Shown here piece by piece: positions 1,419 to 14,713 of a stretch of 30,147 nucleotides of DNA. This stretch comes from a virus. Taxonomy: Duplodnaviria > Heunggongvirae > Uroviricota > Caudoviricetes. The position numbers were made by a program, and so were the translations under genes. The stretch spans positions 1 to 30,147 of the IMG/VR virus record IMGVR_UViG_2778261179_000014. The stretch is one strand, 5' to 3'. Under the pieces are notes generated by a model that was not told the DNA's origin, ran no database searches, and saw only the letters and a program-made list of their open reading frames with translations. Positions within the stretch are counted from its first letter, which is position 1; each line of letters begins with the position of its first letter.

Positions 1419-3860
1419 TTAAAAATCAGCCTGACTCGGGATCAGTTTTTGCCAGATAGCTGAAACGTATTTTGCCTGGTAACGAGCGTCATCAAGTGCA
1501 TTATGGCGCTCACCTTCGAATGGAATAGCCGTTCTGGCATCGAAGTCTATGGCTTTCCCCAGCTCAACGATTGTGCGTACATCGCGATCGTTGTAGTAAC
1601 GCCACGGGCAGGGGATCCCCTGCCGTTCGTATGAACGGCGCAAAATCGTGTTGTCGAAGTTGGCTCCATTTCCCCAGACCTGAACAAAAAATTCACCGGA
1701 GTTTTCGTCGATAAATTCCCGCAATTGTAACAGTGCATCATCTAACGGGATTTCATCGGTCATAATGGCAGATTGCGCTTCGCGTGATTGCTTAAGCCAC
1801 CATTTAATGGTGTCCCGATCAATGACTCCGCCAGCAGTTTCCAGATCGATAGTCTTACTAAATTCCGGTCCCATATCTCCGGTTTGCGGATCGAAAAATA
1901 TTGCACCTATTGAGATGATCGGGGCATCAGGATTTTTTCCCATGGTTTCAAGGTCGATCATTAGATGGTCACACGTCCTGCTGGTGGATGTGATTTCGCG
2001 ATGACCGTTCACCTTAATTGAGTGATCTGCCGTCTCGCCAGTTTTATTATCGCTGGCGTGATGCTGATTGCCGCCAGGGTTCTCCTTGTGTGGATGTTCA
2101 GCGCCTTCCATTTCCTCCGGATCATTTTCCTGAACTTCAACCTGATTCTCTTCATCGAATGTTTCCTGGTATGTTGCGTCGCCCATCACCGCGCCACAAT
2201 CAGGGCAGTTGCCGCCACCGCTTTGACCGCAGGCGGTGCAGACTTTTTCCGGTTCCTGTTGCGCTACTGGTTCGGATTGTTTCGTTTCTGGCTCGTTTTG
2301 TAACGCATTTGGGCTGTTTTGTTCCGCTTTTTGGTCGTTCCGTTCCGATTCATGCTGGTTCTGGTTCACAGAATCGCGAGTCTGGATCCCCTTGACCCAT
2401 TTCGGATCATTAGGGTCGCTAATCCCCTCAACAAATTCACCACGCGATACAGCAAGTAACTTATCGGCGTCAGGCTGGCTGATATTGGCTGCCTGCATAA
2501 TTTTGTTTACTTCGTCAGCGGTGACTTTTACTTGGTTAGCGGAACTCACCTGCGACTGAGCATCCAGCGACTGCGCGTTCTGGCCATGTTCAGTTGTATC
2601 CGGTTCCATTGTTTCAGTTGTTGCCTGTTCACCTGCCATTGCGTCAGATGGTTGTGGTTTTTCTTCTTCTGTTTCACGCTTAGTAACCACCTCGCGGTTA
2701 ATTTCTTCCAGGATATCTTTTTCCGGCGTATGCCGGGCAGCTGTGAGAATTTCCTTGCTGGGGTTCTCGTGATCAGTTTCCGTCAAATAGGCGTTGATAT
2801 ACCCCTGAAGGCGTCCCGGGTAGTGATAAAATTCAGGGTGTGCGCTTCGGATAAGTGCAAAAATAGCGGCGCGGGAATAGTCCAGAATACCCGGGGTTGC
2901 ACGAAGTGCTGCGGACCATTCTTTGAACGGACTTTCTTTGTTCAGGACTACTTCTTTTGCGCGACGATAAACGCTGCCCGGAATTTCATAAATATTAAAA
3001 TCCATCGGAAGTGTGGCTGCTGCAATCTCCACATCCAGTGTGTCGAGGGTGTGTACTAAATTCGGATTGCGATCGGTTTTGTTCCCACCGCCAGCATTAG
3101 CACCGGAAGCCGTGCGGGTGATGCGTGAAACACGATTTCCTTTCATCCACTCTTTTGTCAGCAGACCCCGATCAGTGTAGTCAGCGTCCAGGTATGCTTC
3201 GAAAAAAGCAGTTATTAGTCCCAAGTCTGAATTACTAGGATTAGGGAAAACTTTGTCAGTGTCACGAACCAGTTTGTGGAGGTCGCGAATCTCCAGCGAG
3301 TCGAGCAGACTGGTTTTATGCGAAATAGCCAGGGCAGTAACAGCCGGTAGTTCTTCAGCCCGTGCAATGTGTAATGCCTGGAGTTCGTCGCGTGAAACGT
3401 GCGTTACTGGTTTTTCGCTGCCGTGTTGAGCAAGCCAACGAATGGGCAGTTCCTGACCGGAGACAGGCAGAAGCATGCTCTCCTCAATCTCAGTCATGTC
3501 TTCGCCGTTGATGTTGGTATTGTCAGTGCTAGCTGGTTTGCCCTGAACAGAGGGGGAAGGGCCGATAAATGTCATTGTGATGCCATCTTTCCCGCCTTTT
3601 TCATAGCGGTTGCAGAATTCAGTATCAAACACGCCTTCTGGCGGAAGGTCGTCAACAACGGGCAAATTGACGCGGACGGGTTTTTTAAAGTCGTCTTCAT
3701 CATAATCGTTGTCATCCATTGCGGTAATGCAGCGGGAGATTGCAACAGATAATTTTTTTGCTGTAGTCCAGTAAAAACCACCTTTAATTCCCAGGCGTTT
3801 TCTTACTTTGTCATTTTTTGCTTCGCAATATAGTGCAAATTCTTCTTTATCAGTGCTCAT
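1419..3860 (-). CDS. Large exonuclease with C-terminal DnaQ-like DEDDh 3'-5' exonuclease domain
   Basis: 813 aa. C-terminal about 200 aa carry Exo I (MIDLETMG), Exo II ([12 protein letters not shown]) and Exo III (HNALDDARY) motifs. Long acidic, low-complexity N-terminal region with a CxxC..CxxC cluster ([16 protein letters not shown]). Proteins of this architecture in E. coli prophages are often annotated exodeoxyribonuclease VIII-like; that is from memory and unverified. Confidence 0.8.
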
Positions 3861-3953: not shown

Positions 3954-4145
3954 TTAAAGACCTGCCGGGATTTCGATATTATCCTGGTGAATAACTTTAT
4001 CGACCGGGTAACAGTTACCGGGAATTTTCTGTTCGGTTGCTGCTGCCATACATTCCTGCATTGTTCTGTGAACACTGACTGCAATATCAACTGGCTCTCC
4101 GGAAACAAGAAAAACCGTCAGAATAAGTGCAAATACTGGATTCAT
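3954..4145 (-). CDS. Hypothetical small protein with hydrophobic N-terminus
   Basis: 63 aa from ATG at 4145 (AAGGA 8 nt upstream); the start overlaps the stop of the upstream gene as ATGA (translational coupling); N-terminus MNPVFALILTVFLVSG is hydrophobic. Confidence 0.4.
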   Translation of the reverse strand: MNPVFALILTVFLVSGEPVDIAVSVHRTMQECMAAATEQKIPGNCYPVDKVIHQDNIEIPAGL

Positions 4146-4330
4146 TGTGCACATCCTTTTGGCATCAGACGTAAACGGGCCAGCATTGAAACAATGCATA
4201 CTTTATTTAATAACTCCCGTTCGTGTTTTCTTTTGTTAATGGCCTCTTCAGTGAATACAGGATTACTGATAGTGACACCAATTTCAAAACAACCTTCAGA
4301 CGTATTAACGTTTGGTAATAACGTTTTCAT
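4142..4330 (-). CDS. Hypothetical small protein
   Basis: 62 aa from internal ATG at 4330 with GAGGG 7 nt upstream; coupled to the downstream gene by ATGA overlap. The longer track ORF (to 4435) lacks an RBS. Confidence 0.4.
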   Translation of the reverse strand: MKTLLPNVNTSEGCFEIGVTISNPVFTEEAINKRKHERELLNKVCIVSMLARLRLMPKGCAQ

Positions 4331-4868
4331 TATCGCGCCCTCAACAATGAGTTTTGTGATGCGGTGCCTGGTGCCTCCAGGTGACGTTAACCAGTTAACA
4401 ATTAACGCCGGATACAGAGAATCCACCCATAACACTGTTTTTGGTTTTAACTGTTCCGCGTGCGCTTAGCCGCATTCACCGCATCACAAAATTCACTTTA
4501 AAAATGGCGGCAGAGCAGTCACGGAGTAAAACTGATACCGCCAAACGTCACCAGAAAATTGATAACAGAGGGCGTTGCAGCGGGGTTGTCACTTAAGCGT
4601 ATGGTCAACCTGACAACCCGGTGTCCTCAACGGGGAAGGAATAACCCCGCCATACTTACCGCCGCGCCATTTCGCGGAGTGCCACAACCGGAAGCGCACG
4701 GTCGACGAAAATTTAACGACAGGCTATCTATAAACCAGCTACCTCGCCGTACGCTTTCGCGTTGTGTGCCTGCTTTTAACCACGTCAGGCGAGGTGGTTC
4801 CTGTTATTCCCCAACAACAAGAAATTTGTATAATCCGGATATCCCCAACAACGAGAAGAGTACTCAAC

Positions 4869-5324
4869 GTGATAGCAGAACTGTCAGCGGCTATGGCTGC
4901 GATAAAGGAGACAGCTGGTCTCGCTAAGGTTATTAATGACGCAAAAACGGATGCAGAAGTTAAAGCCGCAACTATTGAACTTCAGAACAAACTAATCACG
5001 CTTCAGGCGGAATGCTTCTCTCTTTGCGATGCGATCCGCTTTCGTGATGAAGAGATAATGCATCTCAAAGCAAAAATTGCAGAGACAGAAGATTTTCAGC
5101 GACAGGCGGAAGGTTACAAGCTTAACAAGCTTGATTCTGGAACCCTTGTATATTCCAAGAAGCAATTTATAGGCGATACTGAGATAACTGTGCATCTTTG
5201 CCCACAATGTTTTGGAAAAAAGGTAATATCTGTACTTCAGCCAATGGAAATAATGCGCTTTGATGCTCATTTTCGTACTTTTTGCCCCGCTTGCAATAAT
5301 AAGTTCTGGATGAACTCAAGATAA
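4869..5324 (+). CDS. Hypothetical coiled-coil protein with C-terminal CPxC...CPxC zinc ribbon
   Basis: Plus-strand ORF inside an otherwise minus-strand early-left region; perfect TATAAT at 4829-4834 upstream; candidate starts GTG 4869 or ATG 4893; N-terminal heptad-like region (ELQNKLITLQAE..., LKAKIAETEDFQRQAEG) and C-terminal HLCPQCFG...FCPACNNKF. Confidence 0.6.
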   Translation: MIAELSAAMAAIKETAGLAKVINDAKTDAEVKAATIELQNKLITLQAECFSLCDAIRFRDEEIMHLKAKIAETEDFQRQAEGYKLNKLDSGTLVYSKKQFIGDTEITVHLCPQCFGKKVISVLQPMEIMRFDAHFRTFCPACNNKFWMNSR

Positions 5325-5459
5325 TTAACCGTTTAAATAAGTTGGGACTATCCAGATTTTTAAAGAACGTACCGGATGCTCACCCGTGTCCGGCGCACGC
5401 ACTCCACCTCACCCGTGGAGAACTCCTTAATTACCAACCTTAGCTTCGTTGGTTAGCTA

Positions 5460-5678
5460 TTAGCGCGGGTATGTAATCATTCTGGCAATGCTTAATGCTG
5501 CTGCTTTTTCCAGCCTGGTGATATCCTGCTCCAGAGCGGACAGATTTTCAGCCTGCTTAGCCCTGGCTTCATTGGCCCATTTCAGATCCTGCGCTGCATT
5601 AATTTTCTGGCGCATCCACTCATAAAGTTCATCATCGGTATAGTCTGGCGCGATGATGACGGGTTCTCGTTTCTGCAT
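5460..5678 (-). CDS. Hypothetical early-left protein
   Basis: 72 aa, ATG at 5678 with GAGGAA upstream; last gene of a three-gene leftward cluster downstream of the OL region. Confidence 0.5.
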   Translation of the reverse strand: MQKREPVIIAPDYTDDELYEWMRQKINAAQDLKWANEARAKQAENLSALEQDITRLEKAAALSIARMITYPR

Positions 5679-5707
5679 ACTGATTCCTCGCGGTGCTGCT
5701 TCGCTTA

Positions 5708-5836
5708 TCAGCCGTTAGATTTTGCCGAGCTGGAAAGCGCCTGTTTAAACTCACTGAAGCTGAGAGCTTCTTCGCCTTCGGCAAGGCCTTCGAAGTATTC
5801 TTCGTAAGCCTTTTCCATGATTGTGTCGAAATCCAT
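5708..5836 (-). CDS. Hypothetical small acidic protein (42 aa)
   Basis: Hand-translated MDFDTIMEKAYEEYFEGLAEGEEALSFSEFKQALSSSAKSNG; AGGTGA RBS 5 nt upstream; start 1 nt after the stop of the upstream gene. Below the ORF-track size cutoff. Confidence 0.35.
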   Translation of the reverse strand: MDFDTIMEKAYEEYFEGLAEGEEALSFSEFKQALSSSAKSNG

Positions 5837-5837
5837 A

Positions 5838-6074
5838 TCACTCACCTGAGTTTCTTTCCAGCCAGCGACGGGCACCATTTTCGGTTTTAAACGTTTTGCT
5901 TTTGGTATACGTCATTGCGGTGAACGTGCCGTCCTGGTTTGGAAACACGCCGTACACCAGAGATTCGTTGTTGCCAAGATCGATAGTATCCATGTTGACC
6001 TCATTTCCCCTTAACGCCGGGGTAGCGGAACAAAAACCTGCTGCATAGTTATTAAAGTTGAACCCTGCCGTCAT
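5838..6074 (-). CDS. Hypothetical protein, first gene downstream of the OL/pL region
   Basis: 78 aa with GAGG 6 nt upstream of ATG 6074; alternative internal start at 5993. Not Arg-rich, so no resemblance to lambda N. Confidence 0.5.
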   Translation of the reverse strand: MTAGFNFNNYAAGFCSATPALRGNEVNMDTIDLGNNESLVYGVFPNQDGTFTAMTYTKSKTFKTENGARRWLERNSGE

Positions 6075-6159
6075 GTTCTTACGCCTCGGGCTGGCTACTT
6101 AACCCCTGACCACTGCCTGGTAACTCGAAGTATTGCCCGGCGTTCTGTGGGGCGGGGTG

Positions 6160-6216
6160 GGTTGGTATGTAATAAATCTAAAAGTATTTAGTTTTATAGT
6201 CAAGGGGAATCTAAAT
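6160..6216 (-). promoter_or_regulatory. Putative OL operator / leftward early promoter region
   Basis: AATCTAAAAGTATTTAGTTT and GAATCTAAATTAATTT carry the same AATCTAA/TTAGATT half-sites as the palindrome between the repressor and cro genes; sits between the repressor terminator and the leftward small genes. Confidence 0.4.
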
Positions 6217-6220
6217 TAAT

Positions 6221-6250
6221 TTAAAAAAAAGGTCGGCATAACCGACCTTA
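6221..6250 (-). terminator. Rho-independent terminator downstream of the repressor gene
   Basis: On the minus strand GGTCGG-TTATG-CCGACC hairpin followed by TTTTTTTT, immediately after the repressor stop at 6271. Confidence 0.6.
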
Positions 6251-6270
6251 AGTTCAAGGACATGGCAGGG

Positions 6271-6918
6271 TTATAGGTTGAACTGCACACCTTTTGCTAC
6301 GGCAACAATTTTACACTCTGGCGTAAGCAAGGATGATTGATAGCGCGGATTGAGAGGGCTTAAATACACAAGTTTTCCATCAATAACTAATTTTTTTATA
6401 GTCATAGACGGTTCATTTGTAAGTGGATCTGGAACTATTACAGCGACGATACTGCCATTTTTATAACTCTCTCCTGGTCTTAGGATCACAGTGGCACCAA
6501 CCGGGATACTTGGCGACCCTGAGGGGTTATGCATAGTGTCATCAGGCATTGAAACGGCAAAATCACCTTCCACTACATCAAAGAATGTGGTGATCCTATC
6601 GACATTTCCCATTGTTTTCTCTCCTTCTAAGATTAGGAAAGAAATCGCGTCACCCCACGAAAAGTAGGGGATCTTGGTGCCTGGATTGCTCTGCACAAAA
6701 GATAGTTCAGGAGACGATACTCCATACAGGAGATAGGACTCAGTAGTTCCTAATGCCTGGGCTAACTTACTTAGAGCTTTGCTGCCGGGTTCGTTTAGAT
6801 CTTTCTCCCAGTACCCTATAGTAACCCCAGTCACGCCTGAAAGCTTACCCAGTTCTACTTGGGTGAGTCCCTTATCTTTTCTGAGTTTCTTAAGCCTGAT
6901 GCCAAGGCTTTCCATCAT
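6271..6918 (-). CDS. CI-like phage repressor (HTH plus S24 LexA-like peptidase domain)
   Basis: 215 aa; N-terminal HTH (GLTQVELGKLSGVTGVTIGYWE); C-terminal domain with Ser (AVSMPDD) and Lys (MTIKKL) typical of autocleaving repressors; divergent from a cro-like gene. Confidence 0.85.
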   Translation of the reverse strand: MMESLGIRLKKLRKDKGLTQVELGKLSGVTGVTIGYWEKDLNEPGSKALSKLAQALGTTESYLLYGVSSPELSFVQSNPGTKIPYFSWGDAISFLILEGEKTMGNVDRITTFFDVVEGDFAVSMPDDTMHNPSGSPSIPVGATVILRPGESYKNGSIVAVIVPDPLTNEPSMTIKKLVIDGKLVYLSPLNPRYQSSLLTPECKIVAVAKGVQFNL

Positions 6919-6939
6919 TTTCTCCCGCGAGTTGAATAT

Positions 6940-7005
6940 AAATTATTTTAGATTGCATTGACCTAAAAAAAATTATCCTGTAATCTAAAAATACTTAGAT
7001 TTTAG
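6940..7005. promoter_or_regulatory. OR-like operator/promoter region between repressor and cro-like genes
   Basis: Perfect palindrome AATCTAA-AAATAC-TTAGATT at 6982-7001 and a further TTAGATT half-site at 6948-6954; rightward promoter TTGACC (6958-6963), 17 nt spacer, TAATCT (6981-6986) overlapping the palindrome. Confidence 0.6.
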
Positions 7006-7014
7006 GAGAGTGAA

Positions 7015-7242
7015 ATGCGAGTTGATGAACTTGTTCAGTTTTTTGGCTCTGTTCAGAGGGTCGCTGATTTTTATGGGATAACCCGCGAAGCTATTTACAT
7101 GTGGCGTAAGCGCCCCGGTGAAATAGTTCCTAAAGGGAGAGCTGCGGAAGCTGCTGCATACTCCAAGGGAAAATTATCTTTGAACCCAGAGCTTTACAAA
7201 AAGAAGGATACCACCCGGGACAAAAGGAAGAGTGATTCATGA
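7015..7242 (+). CDS. Cro-like / YdaS-like small regulator
   Basis: 75 aa, GGAGAG RBS, divergent from the repressor; HTH-like VADFYGITREAIYMWRKR. Confidence 0.6.
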   Translation: MRVDELVQFFGSVQRVADFYGITREAIYMWRKRPGEIVPKGRAAEAAAYSKGKLSLNPELYKKKDTTRDKRKSDS

Positions 7243-7664
7243 AAATCAAACATGAACATATCCGCATGGCGATGAATGCCTGGGCGCATCCGGACGGCGA
7301 AAAAGTACCGGCTGCGAAAATTACCAAAGCGTATTTCGAGCTGGGAATGACGTTCCCGGAACTGTATGACGACAGCCATCCGGAAGCCCTGGCTCGCAAT
7401 ACTCAGAAAATTTTCCGCTGGGTGGAGAAAGACACCCCTGATGCGGTTAAAAAAATTCAGGCGTTGTTACCAGCTATCGAAAAAGCAATGCCACCTCTGC
7501 TGGTGGCCCGAATGCGCAGCCATAGCTCAGCCTATTTTCGGGAACTGGTGGAGACGCGGGAACGACTGGTGAGAGACGCTGATGATTTTGTCGCAGTGGC
7601 GATCGCTGGTTTCAACCAGATGAATCGAGGTGGCCCTGCAGGAAATATTGTGGCTGTGCATTGA
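7239..7664 (+). CDS. YdaT-like (CII-position) regulatory protein
   Basis: 141 aa, start overlaps the cro-like stop; sits in the CII position; N-terminus MKIKHEHI recalled as YdaT-family (unverified). Confidence 0.5.
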   Translation: MKIKHEHIRMAMNAWAHPDGEKVPAAKITKAYFELGMTFPELYDDSHPEALARNTQKIFRWVEKDTPDAVKKIQALLPAIEKAMPPLLVARMRSHSSAYFRELVETRERLVRDADDFVAVAIAGFNQMNRGGPAGNIVAVH

Positions 7665-10606: not shown

Positions 10607-10760
10607 TTTTATATTGGCGAGGTAACGGGAGTTAAGTAGAATGGCTGCGGGTGCTTGAGGCTATCTGTCTCAGGCATGAACACCAAAGGCAGATAGAGAA
10701 AAGCCCCAGTTAACATTACGCGTCCTGCAAGACGCTTAACATTAATCTGAGGCTCAATCT

Positions 10761-10973
10761 ATGAACGGCAAATCTAGGTTAGCCTCTTACGTGCCGAAAG
10801 GCAAGGAGAAGCAGGCTATGAAGCAGCAAAAGGCGATGTTAGTCGCCCTGATCGTCATCTGTTTAACCGTCATTGTGACGGCACTGGTAACGAGGAAAGA
10901 CCTCTGCGAGGTACGAATCCGAACCGGCCAGACGGAGGTCGCTGTCTTCACAGCTTACGAACCTGAGGAGTAA
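10761..10973 (+). CDS. Mok-like upstream reading frame of the hok locus
   Basis: 70-aa ORF that includes the hok frame with a 19-codon N-terminal extension from ATG 10761. Confidence 0.4.
   Translation: MNGKSRLASYVPKGKEKQAMKQQKAMLVALIVICLTVIVTALVTRKDLCEVRIRTGQTEVAVFTAYEPEE
10818..10973 (+). CDS. hokD: Hok/Gef-family type I toxin (HokD/RelF-like, 51 aa)
   Basis: MKQQKAMLVALIVICLTVIVTALVTRKDLCEVRIRTGQTEVAVFTAYEPEE; AAGGAG RBS 9 nt upstream; single TM segment plus the conserved C and Y. Close match to my recollection of E. coli HokD. Confidence 0.85.
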   Translation: MKQQKAMLVALIVICLTVIVTALVTRKDLCEVRIRTGQTEVAVFTAYEPEE

Positions 10974-13147: not shown

Positions 13148-13507
13148 ATGCGTATAGAGTTTGTTTTGCCTTACCCGCCAACGGTGAACACCTACTGGCG
13201 GCGTCGTGGCAGCACATATTTTGTATCAAAAGTCGGTGAGCGTTATCGCCGTGATGTGGCGCTTATTGTTCGCCAGCAGCAACTGAAATTAAACCTGTCC
13301 GGAAGGCTGGCAATAAAAATTATTGCAGAGCCACCGGATAAGCGCCGTCGTGACCTGGACAATATCCTGAAGGCACCACTGGATGCACTGACGCATGCGG
13401 GGCTGCTCATAGACGACGAGCAGTTTGATGAAATTAATATTGTGCGCGGTCAGCTTGTTCCTGGTGGGCGGTTGGGGATAAAAATCACAGAACTGGAGTA
13501 CGCATGA
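13148..13507 (+). CDS. rusA: RusA-family Holliday junction resolvase
   Basis: 119 aa; conserved RusA features PPxxNxYWR near the N-terminus and DxDN catalytic motif (RRRDLDNILKAPLDAL). Confidence 0.85.
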   Translation: MRIEFVLPYPPTVNTYWRRRGSTYFVSKVGERYRRDVALIVRQQQLKLNLSGRLAIKIIAEPPDKRRRDLDNILKAPLDALTHAGLLIDDEQFDEINIVRGQLVPGGRLGIKITELEYA

Positions 13508-14193
13508 ATAACCAGTATTTACAGTTTGTTCGTGAGCAACTCATGATTGCCACCGCCGATTTGAGTGGATCAACAAAAGGGCAGCTTGAGGCCTGGCAGG
13601 AGAATGCCATGTTTGATACAGGGCGTTACAGGCGTAAAAAAATCCGGTACCGCGATGAAGTGACTGGAAAAATGATAACGCGGGATAATCCACCAATCCC
13701 GGGAAAGCAATCGCTGGCGAAGGGGACGTCAATTCCTCTGGTCAGTCCGGTTGAGTTTTCGACATCATCGTGGCGGCGGGCTGTTCTGTCTCTTGAAGAA
13801 CATCATAAAGCCTGGTTGTTGTGGTGTTACAGCGGGAGTATTTGTTGGGAATATCAGATCGCGATAACACAGTGGGCGTGGAATGAATTTAATACTCAAT
13901 CCGGTACCAGAAAAATTGCAGGGAAAACGCAGGAACGCCTGAAAAAATTAATCTGGCTGGCGGCGCAGGCAGTAAAAGCAGAACTTTTTGGTGGGGAAGG
14001 TTATGAATACCAGGAGCTGGCATTACTGGCGGGAGTGACAACTAAAAACTGGTCCAAAACATTTACTCGTCACTGGGTTGCAATGAAACACATTTTTCAC
14101 CGACTGGATAGTGAGGCTTTATTGTTTGTAATGAGAACACGTTCAAAACAAAAGGCGGCATTTTCAAAGCAAAGTGTTGCAAAAGTAGATTGA
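13504..14193 (+). CDS. Late-gene antitermination protein Q-like
   Basis: 229 aa, start overlaps the rusA stop; sits directly upstream of a terminator, tRNAs and the lysis cassette. Family assignment is by context and recall. Confidence 0.6.
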   Translation: MNNQYLQFVREQLMIATADLSGSTKGQLEAWQENAMFDTGRYRRKKIRYRDEVTGKMITRDNPPIPGKQSLAKGTSIPLVSPVEFSTSSWRRAVLSLEEHHKAWLLWCYSGSICWEYQIAITQWAWNEFNTQSGTRKIAGKTQERLKKLIWLAAQAVKAELFGGEGYEYQELALLAGVTTKNWSKTFTRHWVAMKHIFHRLDSEALLFVMRTRSKQKAAFSKQSVAKVD

Positions 14194-14403: not shown

Positions 14404-14479
14404 GGCCCTTTAGCTCAGTGGTGAGAGCGAGCGACTCATAATCGCCAGGTCGCTGGTTCAAATCCAGCAAGGGCCACCA
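14404..14479 (+). tRNA. tRNA with anticodon CAU, Ile2 (lysidine)-like
   Basis: Hand-folded cloverleaf: acceptor GGCCCTT/AAGGGCC, D-stem GCTC/GAGC, anticodon loop CTCATAA, T-arm GCTGG-TTCAAAT-CCAGC, encoded CCA. Resembles E. coli ileX from memory. Confidence 0.8.
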
Positions 14480-14480
14480 A

Positions 14481-14557
14481 CCGCCACTAGCTCATCAGGA
14501 AAGAGCGTCAACCCTTTAAGTTGAGTGTGCGAGGTTCGAGTCCCCGGTGGCGGTCCA
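14481..14557 (+). tRNA. tRNA-like gene with atypical anticodon loop CCTTTAA (anticodon UUU, Lys-type, isotype uncertain)
   Basis: Acceptor CCGCCAC/GTGGCGG (7 bp, C1-G72), D-stem GCTC/GAGC, anticodon stem TCAAC/GTTGA, T-arm CGAGG-TTCGAGT-CCCCG with one A-C mismatch, encoded CCA. Position 33 is C rather than the near-universal U. Confidence 0.55.
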
Positions 14558-14559
14558 GT

Positions 14560-14635
<76 letters not shown>

Positions 14636-14638
14636 TAT

Positions 14639-14713
<75 letters not shown>

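Follow-up and report, generated by a model that had tools for sequence, protein, structure and literature searches.

Organization of the Operon

The window, that is, the whole 30,147-nt stretch of DNA that was analyzed, contains three small ORFs on the minus strand at positions 5,460–6,074: the first at 5838..6074 (78 aa as called), the second at 5708..5836 (42 aa, with a 56-aa version from a start at 5878), and the third at 5460..5678 (72 aa). An earlier note on this DNA had described three such ORFs as the tightly packed first genes of a leftward early operon with good ribosome binding sites, and all three were found, in that arrangement. A single nucleotide stands between the stop codon of the first ORF and the ATG of the 42-aa frame (TGA-t-ATG), and these two genes are predicted to be translationally coupled; the second and third genes lie 29 nt apart, and a Shine–Dalgarno (SD)-like motif precedes each start (GAGG 5′ of ATG 5993, GGTGAG 5′ of ATG 5836, and GAGGA 5′ of ATG 5678). 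Each ORF has a protein-family match and dN/dS is below 1 in all three annotated frames, which sets them apart from chance ORFs. Comparison with Escherichia coli K-12 identifies their products as YdfA (100% identical to WP_000379575.1), YdfB (100% identical to WP_000344964.1), and YdfC (71 of 72 residues identical to WP_001171942.1). We have almost no doubt that this is a dicBF-type early-left operon and that its promoter-proximal genes, the three ORFs here, are ydfA (51 aa), ydfB (42 aa), and ydfC (72 aa). Though the earlier note presented them as unknown genes, they are already catalogued under these names in the dicBF operon of the Qin prophage, which has the order ydfABC–dicF–dicB–ydfD and in which ydfABC are promoter-proximal with no function assigned (PMC5069750). 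The feature is an already known and ordinary one, and its K-12 annotation is decades old.

The remainder of the operon lies to the left, where the earlier note, correct in its three ORFs, had overlooked DicF, dicB, and a ydfD-like gene. Directly 3′ of ydfC is an untranslated stretch conserved in the K-12 Qin alignment (5369..5459, minus strand), followed by an insertion of ∼590 bp that separates ydfC from dicF here and is absent from K-12 Qin (4780..5368, an alignment gap against K-12). The insertion carries an opposite-strand ORF (4764..5324, plus strand) that matches phrog_1244 (2e-51 over residues 40–185) and has a C-terminal CxxC...CxxC arrangement; another locus, L007, has a probable homologue at the same place, a 177-aa ORF that likewise lies on the opposite strand and shares the weak DUF641 match. 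Next on the minus strand, at 4505..4556, come the DicF small RNA and the intrinsic terminator that ends it (Rfam RF00039 over its full length, 1–52, at 73.4 bits where the gathering score is 48). The same strand then encodes the cell-division inhibitor DicB in its 62-aa form (4142..4330; Pfam DicB, 2.3e-38; NCBIfam CellDivInhibDicB, 128.8 bits against 100), a ydfD-like DUF1482 protein (3954..4145; PF07358, 2e-25; named YdfD or DUF1482 in matching records) and, distally in the same leftward operon, an exonuclease (1419..3860) with a Pfam Exonuc_VIII N-terminal region and an Rv2179c-like 3′–5′ exonuclease domain. Thus, downstream of an immunity repressor gene, a single strand carries the order ydfA–ydfB–ydfC–DicF–dicB–ydfD, as in a dicBF operon. 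The K-12 Qin genes share this order, their spacing, the downstream DicF, dicB, and ydfD, and the kind of repressor-controlled promoter. Whereas K-12 Qin is a remnant, the element here looks intact, with an integrase, a full exonuclease, a Q antiterminator, and structural-gene-size ORFs further along the window, and it is probably an intact Qin-related lambdoid prophage. In K-12, ydfABC are co-transcribed from the repressor-controlled promoter upon derepression and the ydfA transcript is processed; this regulation and the RNase E/III processing that releases DicF are established for K-12 only (bioRxiv 10.1101/2023.04.14.536235). Expressed without dicF and dicB, the K-12 genes are not λ protective; resistance to λ requires DicB (PMC6832061).

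Upstream of ydfA, on the minus strand, lies a cI-type repressor gene (6271..6918; Pfam HTH_3, 1.5e-12, and Peptidase_S24, 1.5e-10; phrog_4, transcriptional repressor), followed by a terminator-like hairpin and T-run (6229..6249; a 9-bp stem with 5 GC pairs, then TTTTTTAAAT). A promoter scan places a σ70-like pL-type promoter, TTGACT-17-TAGATT, at 6203-6175 on the same strand, and operator-like repeats of the AATCTAAAAGTATTTAG type (6174-6195 and 6207-6223, minus strand) accompany it within the region 6174..6223. Further copies of the repeats are at 6934-6950 and 6982-7002, in the interval that separates the repressor gene from cro. We infer promoter and operator function at 6174..6223 from these sequences and from the K-12 dicBp precedent, and at the sequence level the OL/pL region proposed in the earlier note is borne out by the terminator-like hairpin, the promoter-like site, and the repeats. 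Immediately 5′ of the ydfA ATG is a conserved 38-nt leader with its SD (GTTCCGCTACCCCGGCGTTAAGGGGAAATGAGGTCAAC; 5994..6031, minus strand), which marks a mosaic joint and, in Salmonella loci that lack ydfA, directly precedes ydfB. The DNA upstream of this leader is unrelated to K-12 because the immunity regions differ: the repressor here is a 215-aa HTH plus S24 protein and that of K-12 is the 135-aa DicA. The 186-nt leader has no unusual structure relative to shuffled sequence (z = 0.22), and a put-like or otherwise structured leader RNA was rejected on this value and on a permissive Rfam scan of the leader, which returned nothing.

Start Sites, Selection, and Predicted Structures

The DUF1391 model PF07151 matches the first ORF at 96.8 bits (gathering threshold 27.3) over the whole 48-position model (model 1–48), which assigns the product to the DUF1391/YdfA–YdaF family. 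The match falls on residues 29–76 of the 78-aa ORF. Homology to K-12 and to loci of other immunity types starts 38 nt upstream of ATG 5993, the upstream ATG that would begin the 78-aa frame is present solely in this flank type, and copies of that type show no differences across the N-terminal extension. RefSeq and other gene callers give ydfA as 51 aa. The comparative evidence of where homology starts and of the unconserved upstream ATG speaks against a coding role for the extension; ydfA, as these comparisons indicate, probably starts at ATG 5993 and encodes 51 aa (5838..5993, minus strand), with the 78 aa an over-extension. The 78-aa gene of the earlier note exists, then, as an ORF, but the gene probably does not have that length. 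Its description of the first product as not Arg-rich is accurate, there being 7 K+R in 78 aa, with 4 Arg, none clustered at the N terminus. Amino acid constraint on ydfA is the strongest of the three (dN/dS = 0.07–0.18), and the predicted structure of YdfA is a β-hairpin plus helix (pLDDT 74). YdfA has a weak match (E = 0.38) to protein D, which decorates phage heads; this match may be the source of the label "head-DNA stabilization protein D" in some phage records, a label that we regard as spurious.

The second gene, ydfB (5708..5836, minus strand; phrog_2061), encodes an acidic two-helix–type peptide of 42 aa. Its pI of 4.05, with 10 D/E against 3 K/R and a net charge of about −7, agrees with its earlier description as highly acidic. 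Exactly 42 codons are kept in Escherichia, Salmonella, Citrobacter, and Cronobacter, and together with the identity to K-12 this conserved frame makes the product a b1572-type YdfB. In most pairs ydfB dN/dS is 0.14–0.3; the annotated frame is stop-free and has the lowest pN/pS ratio among the six frames (0.33), with a Fisher p of 2.6e-4 against Cronobacter. Because purifying selection acts on all three genes, the 42-aa ydfB is, on these comparative grounds, a real gene; the literature searched held no ribosome-profiling or mass-spectrometry report of its translation. An acidic core, EGEEALSF.EF, is conserved across genera, and many of the conserved positions are hydrophobic. An EF-hand–like reading of this core (LAEGEEALSFSEF) was dropped, as neither an EF-hand nor any other Pfam match appeared even at E ≤ 10. 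Homology to the Rac protein YdaG is likewise unsupported, since its A17, V18, C30, and V38 (bioRxiv 10.1101/2025.03.22.644768) do not fit the YdfB sequence.

The third gene, ydfC (5460..5678, minus strand), matches phrog_1744 at 1.9e-39 and encodes 72 aa that comprise a conserved N-terminal peptide and one long helix. The AF2 model is a single helix spanning residues 15–69 (pLDDT 88), in which an a/d-type hydrophobic repeat can be read from the sequence. For ydfC dN/dS is 0.55–0.6, and the C-terminal part is allelic, diverging to 46–62% identity. Its size and position are like those of KilR, but the Pfam KilR model finds true KilR in related loci and not YdfC, and homology to KilR was rejected.

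For none of the three products was there a functional match in the Pfam, NCBIfam, or PHROG libraries, a significant match to the PADLOC defense models, or a significant relative of solved structure by sequence. The fold search, which covered the YdfA model, gave no match carrying a biochemical clue; the single helix of YdfC is uninformative for such a search. The earlier note had held that homology to N, cIII, or Kil would overturn its view; no family match to N, cIII, Kil, or KilR was found for the three products in Pfam, NCBIfam, and PHROGs. The KilR, Lambda_Kil, and DicB models do detect other genes in the window and in related loci, and no relationship in sequence to DicB could be detected for YdfA, YdfB, or YdfC; the three thus fall outside the Kil, KilR, DicB, and λ cIII families.

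Distribution of the Module and Its Relatives

DNA of the module, annotated ydfA/ydfB/ydfC, was matched in 4391 of 5426 complete E. coli genomes (∼80%), and it is 95–99% identical in 3359 E. coli records. The same gene order is found with repressors of several different types. Salmonella, Citrobacter, and Cronobacter have related operons in which ydfA is missing while kilR, gam, and the exonuclease are retained downstream; other related operons lack ydfC, and one strain without ydfB has been reported (PMC5069750). Thus, as each gene is absent from some related operons, the three do not form an obligate unit. The same comparison suggests that downstream expression does not need ydfA or ydfC, in that operons without ydfA or ydfC keep kil, gam, and the exonuclease. 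In Rac-like loci ydfB is accompanied by kilR, which stands where dicB would be, and dicB was not among the genes called there. Neither ydfB nor ydfC has fusion partners, and both have a narrow host range.

YdaF of the Rac prophage belongs to the same Pfam family as YdfA, as a DUF1391 paralogue, and "YdaF family protein" is the name that NCBI gives to some close homologues. The genes for YdaF and YdfA both belong to leftward operons made up of small genes and adjoin a prophage repressor (PMC11014345), though the Rac operon differs in its content (ydaFG, sieB, kilR, recET). In λ the corresponding slot, that of repressor-controlled leftward genes upstream of recombination, excision, and integration functions, is held by N, ral, cIII, and kil. 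Unlike these λ pL genes, ydfABC have no family relationship to them, no Arg-rich motif, and no nut-like boxA, and their K-12 copies are nontoxic.

DUF1391 Occurs within Polyvalent Proteins

DUF1391 was found in 230 clusters. An architecture scan covered 20 long DUF1391 representatives, among which 5 clusters combine the domain with DarA_N (P0415, P0436, P0442, P0443, and P0455) and 2 with ArdC-N and DUF3560 (P0435 and P0473). P0442 is part of a dar-like operon, in which an hdf-like DarA_N protein is followed by P0442, an InPase plus DdrB-ParB protein, and an LPD29 plus helicase plus methyltransferase protein; P0415 is followed by a DdrB-ParB protein. Two DUF1391 multidomain proteins sit in P1-like dar anti-restriction operons. 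The domain of YdfA co-occurs, in phage or conjugative contexts, with domains of polyvalent counter-defense proteins, which have been interpreted as effectors of counter-defense early in invasion (Iyer et al. 2017, PMC5512222). Within the polyvalent proteins the signature of YdfA, which runs GNNE, DGTF.A.T, and SK.FKT..GA.RWL in that order, is preserved in DUF1391. YdfA differs in being the domain alone (51 aa), made from an early promoter, whereas the DarA- and ArdC-type proteins are large and presumably delivered with the DNA.

Several observations bear on how far this association reaches. Unrelated phages, too, carry DUF1391 as a stand-alone gene, in the company of small genes that are mostly hypothetical. 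P1 DarA gave no tblastn match to YdfA, and a tblastn search for an association of DUF1391 with plasmid leading regions, being a single-sequence search blind to remote members, returned only prophage-like E. coli/Salmonella DNA filed as plasmids. The terms DUF1391, YdfA, and YdaF are absent from the main text of Iyer et al. 2017 (PMC5512222), and the literature searched holds no experiment that ties YdfA, YdfB, or YdfC to any defense system. Domain co-occurrence is guilt by association, and because DarA_N may itself be capsid targeting, the DUF1391 fused to it could be any payload or adaptor. The link to the DarA_N and ArdC-N polyvalent proteins is a new lead, and we put it forward as a lead only.

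Proposed Function of ydfABC

The recurrence of DUF1391 in DarA_N- and ArdC-N/DUF3560-containing proteins supports, indirectly, a counter-defense role for YdfA. The earlier note had suggested anti-defense functions for the genes at the head of the operon; these fusions lend the idea indirect support for the first gene and none for the others. We hold a counter-defense role for YdfA as a tentative possibility and regard it as less probable again for YdfB and YdfC.

In the mechanism that we propose, ydfABC would be dispensable accessory early proteins that bind components of the host or of its defenses and do not regulate phage transcription. YdfA would be a free-standing DUF1391 β-hairpin-plus-helix module of the kind that elsewhere lies inside DarA_N-type and ArdC-N/DUF3560-type proteins; if it is a free-standing copy of the polyvalent-protein module, then counter-restriction or another counter-defense function at the start of the lytic program would be its most likely role. 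YdfB would be a small acidic helical peptide. YdfC would form a coiled-coil that presents its conserved N-terminal peptide (REPVIIAPDYTDDELYEWM), and it is probably an oligomeric binder of a conserved target. This explanation as a whole, comprising the identity of the genes, the operon, and the accessory-binder mechanism, is one that we modestly favor. The narrower proposal that YdfA is a free-standing counter-defense module and that ydfABC are an anti-defense cassette at the head of the early-left operon in N-less phages of the Qin/Rac type is doubtful at present, and we offer it with corresponding reserve.

Alternative Roles

The proteins could instead modulate host physiology or the lysis–lysogeny decision, resembling λ cIII, Kil, and Ral in role and not in ancestry; YdfC, for example, might use an amphipathic helix to inhibit a protease or a division protein of the host. 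The three genes occupy pL-operon slots held in λ by ral, cIII, and kil; DicF and DicB of the same operon target host division and transport; and the one long helix of YdfC, with its a/d-type repeat, is what would be expected of a coiled-coil binder. An ASKA overexpression screen adds a weak point, in that ydfA, ydfB, and ydfD were among many oxidant-tolerance genes (PMC8228696). The failure of the Lambda_Kil, KilR, DicB, and cIII families to match argues the other way, as does the YdaT-family protein, and not a λ-type CII, that stands in the cII position and thereby removes the obvious need for a cIII. The check for toxicity upon ectopic expression that the earlier note recommended has in effect been done in K-12 and speaks against a toxic product: when the operon was induced without dicF and dicB (F−B−), growth, viability, and morphology were normal (PMC5069750). 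Taken with these results, a modulatory role is unlikely.

The ORFs might also act mainly at the RNA level, their translation protecting or shaping the 5′ transcript that yields DicF and dicB, and the peptides themselves having little function. The uniformity of the module DNA in E. coli (95–99% identity across the 3359 records) is consistent with this, and the literature searched reports no protein phenotype. Selection, however, acts on the amino acids of all three products, most strongly on YdfA (0.07–0.18), with substitutions mostly at third codon positions, and ydfB retains its exact codon number across four genera. In addition, DUF1391 is a protein domain with hundreds of clusters, some of its carriers being multidomain proteins away from any DicF context, and ydfB persists in Rac-like loci where kilR replaces dicB. 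We consider an RNA-level role improbable.

The earlier note had speculated that the acidic YdfB is a DNA mimic, which would block a DNA-binding defense or repair protein. The net charge of about −7, the pI of 4.05, the acidic core conserved across genera, and the early-operon position of ydfB are compatible with this idea, which nothing beyond charge supports, but YdfB resembles no solved structure or family, its hydrophobic conserved positions fit a helical binder equally well, and neither fusions nor gene neighborhood support mimicry. At 42 aa it is also shorter than the known DNA mimics, the smallest known being phi29 p56, with 56 aa and active as a dimer. DNA mimicry by YdfB is accordingly a quite improbable reading.

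Finally, a nonhomologous analogue of λ N, permitting leftward read-through past the DicF terminator to dicB, the exonuclease, xis, and int, could be among the three, with the first gene as the obvious candidate by its position. YdfA does stand in the N position directly after pL, an intrinsic terminator (the DicF 3′ end) lies within the operon upstream of genes that a viable phage needs, and, as the earlier note had observed, no N gene was recognized in the early region examined, where Q is present. No boxA-like site occurs in 5990-6170 or in the cro-proximal region, matches across the window being at chance level, so that nut sites in the pL and pR leaders find no support from boxA or from the leader fold (z = 0.22), the boxB-hairpin search being nonexhaustive. 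We rejected an N analogue as scarcely credible on families, Arg content, leader fold, boxA, and comparative loci: YdfA has neither an Arg-rich motif nor an N-family match and is predicted to fold as a β-hairpin plus helix, whereas N is disordered; kilR, gam, and the exonuclease are retained in the Salmonella, Citrobacter, and Cronobacter operons without ydfA, a point against YdfA acting like N; some operons lack ydfC and one strain lacks ydfB (PMC5069750); and Plac-driven transcription in K-12 gives dicB expression without a known factor (PMC5069750).

Significance

The accessory-binder explanation, which we prefer to these alternatives, concerns genes of wide occurrence, as ydfA, ydfB, and ydfC are the first products made upon derepression of a very common class of prophage. 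For YdfA, the DUF1391 link yields a hypothesis that is cheap to test, namely that this 51-aa protein alleviates restriction or has another counter-defense activity. Were this so, the known anti-defense modules would gain one that is very small and very widespread, and the retention of the cassette by cryptic prophages would be easier to explain. The wider reading of ydfABC as an anti-defense cassette, if true, would assign a function to three "y-genes" that ∼80% of E. coli genomes carry.

The Three Small Leftward Genes Are ydfABC of a dicBF-Type Operon

The three ORFs lie on the minus strand at 5838..6074 (78 aa), 5708..5878 (56 aa, or 42 aa from ATG 5836) and 5460..5678 (72 aa). The stop of the first and the start of the 42-aa frame are arranged as TGA-t-ATG, 29 nt separate the second and third ORFs, and an SD-like motif is present at every conserved start. 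Upstream are a promoter-like site (TTGACT-17-TAGATT, 6203-6175), a terminator-like hairpin (6249-6229) and a 215-aa repressor gene (6271..6918; HTH_3 and Peptidase_S24 by Pfam), and the operator-like repeats at 6174-6195 and 6207-6223 are found again in the repressor-cro interval (6934-6950 and 6982-7002). The hairpin, promoter-like site, shared repeats and ORF spacing thus bear out the earlier note, which described three closely spaced small genes after an OL/pL region. Its remarks on composition are also accurate: the 42-aa product is highly acidic (pI 4.05; 10 D/E, 3 K/R) and the first product is not Arg-rich, containing only 7 K+R in its 78-residue form. The gene in the cII position (7239-7664, plus strand), named "activator protein cII" in one phage record, belongs to the YdaT family (Pfam YdaT_toxin, 1.1e-09); this places the immunity region in the Rac/Qin (YdaS/YdaT-like) class, and its cro gene is P22-Cro-like.

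Pfam assigns the first ORF to DUF1391 (PF07151) with 96.8 bits (cut-off 27.3), and all three ORFs match PHROG families of unknown function. A megablast search of complete E. coli genomes with 5440-6270 returned matches in 4391 of 5426, at a median of two places per genome, and the matched DNA carries the annotations ydfA (DUF1391), ydfB and ydfC. With C600, a K-12 derivative, as the K-12 reference, identity is 100% for both YdfA (51 aa) and YdfB (42 aa), and YdfC has a single residue difference. Downstream, the window encodes DicF RNA (4505-4556, minus strand; Rfam 73.4 bits vs 48), dicB (Pfam, NCBIfam), a DUF1482/ydfD-like gene and an 813-aa exonuclease. The dicBF operon of Qin, a cryptic K-12 prophage, has the order ydfABC-dicF-dicB-ydfD, and the ydfA, ydfB and ydfC products are described as "small proteins of unknown function" (PMC5069750; PMC9438474). 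These comparisons establish both the identity of the window genes, which are ydfABC as described for Qin, and their place in a dicBF-type operon. The earlier reading, that small early genes without a known role take the place of N, stands as regards function, but the genes are already named and belong to a well-studied operon; the feature is real, already known and ordinary.

Compared with K-12 Qin, the window has a different immunity region and an insertion of ~590 bp, with an ORF on the opposite strand, separating ydfC from dicF. Its 4100-7300 stretch is 99% identical to Escherichia phage vB_EcoS-689R5 over 82% of its length. The window encodes an integrase and a Q antiterminator, has ORFs as large as structural genes further on, and gives the appearance of an intact phage. 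A run of four tRNA genes (14404-14710, plus strand) comes immediately after the Q gene, and a full-length match to sok antitoxin RNA (10649-10823, plus strand; Rfam RF01794, 110 bits vs 59) implies a hok/sok-type module in the early-right region.

The opposite-strand ORF (4764-5324, plus strand; insertion 4780-5368) lies inside the leftward operon, and its DNA is absent from K-12 Qin. Its phrog_1244 match spans residues 40-185, which makes an internal Met the likely start; the product has a coiled-coil-like N terminus and a C-terminal CxxC...CxxC. At the equivalent place, Rac-like loci carry sieB in opposite orientation, and the related locus L007 has a 177-aa ORF, likewise on the opposite strand, that shares the weak DUF641 match. 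The ORF may be a prophage-expressed moron, or a defense or exclusion gene; PADLOC returned no significant match for it.

The Start of ydfA and Its Conserved Leader

The earlier note gave the first product 78 aa, but we conclude that ydfA is probably 5838..5993, encoding 51 aa, and that the longer form is an over-extension. This follows from several features. The Pfam DUF1391 model spans residues 29-76 of the 78-aa ORF; similarity to K-12 and other-immunity loci starts only 38 nt upstream of the internal ATG 5993, which has GAGG five bases ahead of it; the upstream in-frame ATG, 27 codons earlier, is confined to this flank type, the K-12 position having only TTG or GTG and the Salmonella loci no start codon at all; and RefSeq and other gene callers choose 51 aa at every locus. 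Translation from 6074 is possible in this particular phage. In Salmonella loci lacking ydfA, the same leader, SD and ATG stand directly in front of ydfB.

The 38-nt leader, SD included (5994-6031, minus strand; consensus aGTTCCGCyACCC(C)GGCGTTAAkGGG(A)AATGAGGTCArc), is kept before the first cistron whatever the immunity type (related loci L002, L004, L013 and L014), and is the same before ydfA or, where ydfA is missing, before ydfB. It contains a small CCCC-N8-GGGG hairpin just ahead of the SD. Its appearance is that of a joint from mosaic recombination or of a conserved element for translation initiation. In ON470583.1 (4177-4413) and other phage records ydfA is labeled "head-DNA stabilization protein D"; the sole basis found was a non-significant similarity to a head decoration protein (PDB 1td0; E = 0.38), and we take the label as a misannotation.

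ydfABC Encode Proteins and Form a Modular Cassette

All three genes are protein coding. By the Nei-Gojobori method, dN/dS is 0.07-0.18 for ydfA, 0.14-0.3 in most pairs for ydfB (0.5-0.67 vs Citrobacter), and 0.55-0.6 between allele types for ydfC. That the 42-aa ORF is a real gene, as the earlier note proposed, is indicated by sequence conservation: prophages of Escherichia, Salmonella, Citrobacter and Cronobacter carry homologues with precisely 42 codons, dN/dS is low, the annotated frame has the lowest pN/pS of six (0.33) and is the sole frame without stop codons, and the excess of synonymous changes is significant against Cronobacter (Fisher p = 2.6e-4). The literature searched gave no direct evidence of YdfB translation.

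The cassette is modular. Repressors of several unrelated types precede it; Rac-like Citrobacter loci have ydfB alone, then sieB, kilR, ydaE and recE-type genes; in Cronobacter and at one Salmonella locus ydfB is present while ydfA and ydfC are both missing; and another Salmonella locus has ydfB-ydfC. The organism names on YdfC homologues are Escherichia only. In some E. coli prophages, such as L005 (2929-3407) and L007 (2930-3402), a PaaA2/ParE toxin-antitoxin pair separates the repressor gene from a ydfA leader that is the same as the window's.

None of the Three Proteins Is a Good Substitute for N

The observation that no N is recognizable near pL stands. None of the three proteins matches the N, cIII, Kil, KilR or DicB families in Pfam, NCBIfam or PHROGs, and no relationship to N, cIII or Kil is detectable at the sequence level. 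The pL leader contains no boxA-like site, such matches across the window being at chance level; its folding is no stronger than that of shuffled sequence (z = 0.22), and Rfam, scanned permissively, gave no match in it. Downstream genes are kept in operons lacking ydfA or ydfC. The window does encode a Q antiterminator (13504..14193). None of YdfA, YdfB and YdfC is a good N substitute.

The DicF intrinsic terminator (4505-4556, minus strand) lies upstream of dicB, the exonuclease, a small integrase-adjacent ORF (possibly xis) and int, in the leftward operon of a seemingly functional phage without recognizable N; the terminator could leak, or read-through could depend on processing or on some other means of antitermination. 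A sub-threshold STnc100 match (4353-4493, minus strand; 38.8 bits vs a gathering score of 47; E = 2e-6 in a local scan) falls after DicF and before the start of dicB.

Possible Roles of YdfA, YdfB and YdfC

Published data exist for the identical K-12 genes. The Plac-driven operon is highly toxic, but once dicF and dicB are deleted the cells again grow normally and are normal in viability and morphology; at that expression level ydfABC, together with ydfD, are therefore not toxic (PMC5069750). Operon-conferred lambda resistance is DicB-dependent (PMC6832061), and DicA represses the promoter, a repression that the antirepressor Rem relieves (bioRxiv 10.1101/2023.04.14.536235). In an ASKA overexpression screen ydfA, ydfB and ydfD were three of several hundred candidates for oxidant tolerance (PMC8228696), a result to which we give little weight.

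AlphaFold2, run with family alignments, models YdfC as an extended N-terminal peptide followed by a single long helix (15-69; pLDDT 88), in which an a/d-type hydrophobic repeat, read from the sequence, suggests a coiled coil. Residues 1-22 are almost invariant, and identity in the remainder falls to 46-62%; YdfC may be a conserved docking peptide on a variable oligomerization helix. ydfC (5460-5678, minus strand) is internally mosaic, its helical remainder occurring in several allele types (L004-L007 and L014). YdfA is modeled as a beta-hairpin (10-18, 24-31) and a helix (38-48) with mean pLDDT 74, resembling no fold among solved or predicted viral structures, and no PDB sequence is related to YdfA, YdfB or YdfC.

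An exhaustive HMMER search with YdfA over 1.84 billion cluster representatives (E <= 0.001) matched 230 clusters, mostly small solo proteins; 13 of 144 newly returned representatives exceed 250 aa. Pfam was applied to 20 long representatives: DUF1391 is joined to DarA_N in five of them, and to both ArdC-N and DUF3560 in two. The locus of one DarA_N+DUF1391 representative, P0442, has an hdf-like DarA_N protein upstream and, downstream, an InPase+DdrB-ParB protein and then an LPD29+helicase+methyltransferase protein, mirroring the dar anti-restriction operon of phage P1; in another, P0415, a DdrB-ParB protein is next downstream. The DarA_N and ArdC-N proteins carrying DUF1391 are "polyvalent proteins" of Iyer et al., interpreted there as effectors deployed against host defenses as invasion starts; the main text of that study does not name DUF1391 (PMC5512222). 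The signature D.GNNE ... DGTF.A.T ... SK.FKT..GA.RWL..RG is kept in solo and fused copies alike, and in several unrelated phages (Pantoea LIET2, Escherichia Bas97, Serratia OS31, Salicola CGphi29) a solo DUF1391 gene is also present among small genes.

YdfA, YdfB and YdfC would be dispensable accessory early proteins acting through binding of host components. For YdfB, an acidic helical peptide, and YdfC, with its predicted coiled coil and conserved N-terminal motif, a generic "small binder" role can be argued at most, and the idea that YdfB is a DNA mimic is unsupported beyond its charge. The domain fusions point to counter-restriction or other counter-defense for YdfA, a role we consider possible but rather doubtful because co-occurrence does not show what a domain does and DarA_N, for its part, may serve to target capsids. 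YdfA is thus a modest lead, but one that can be tested.
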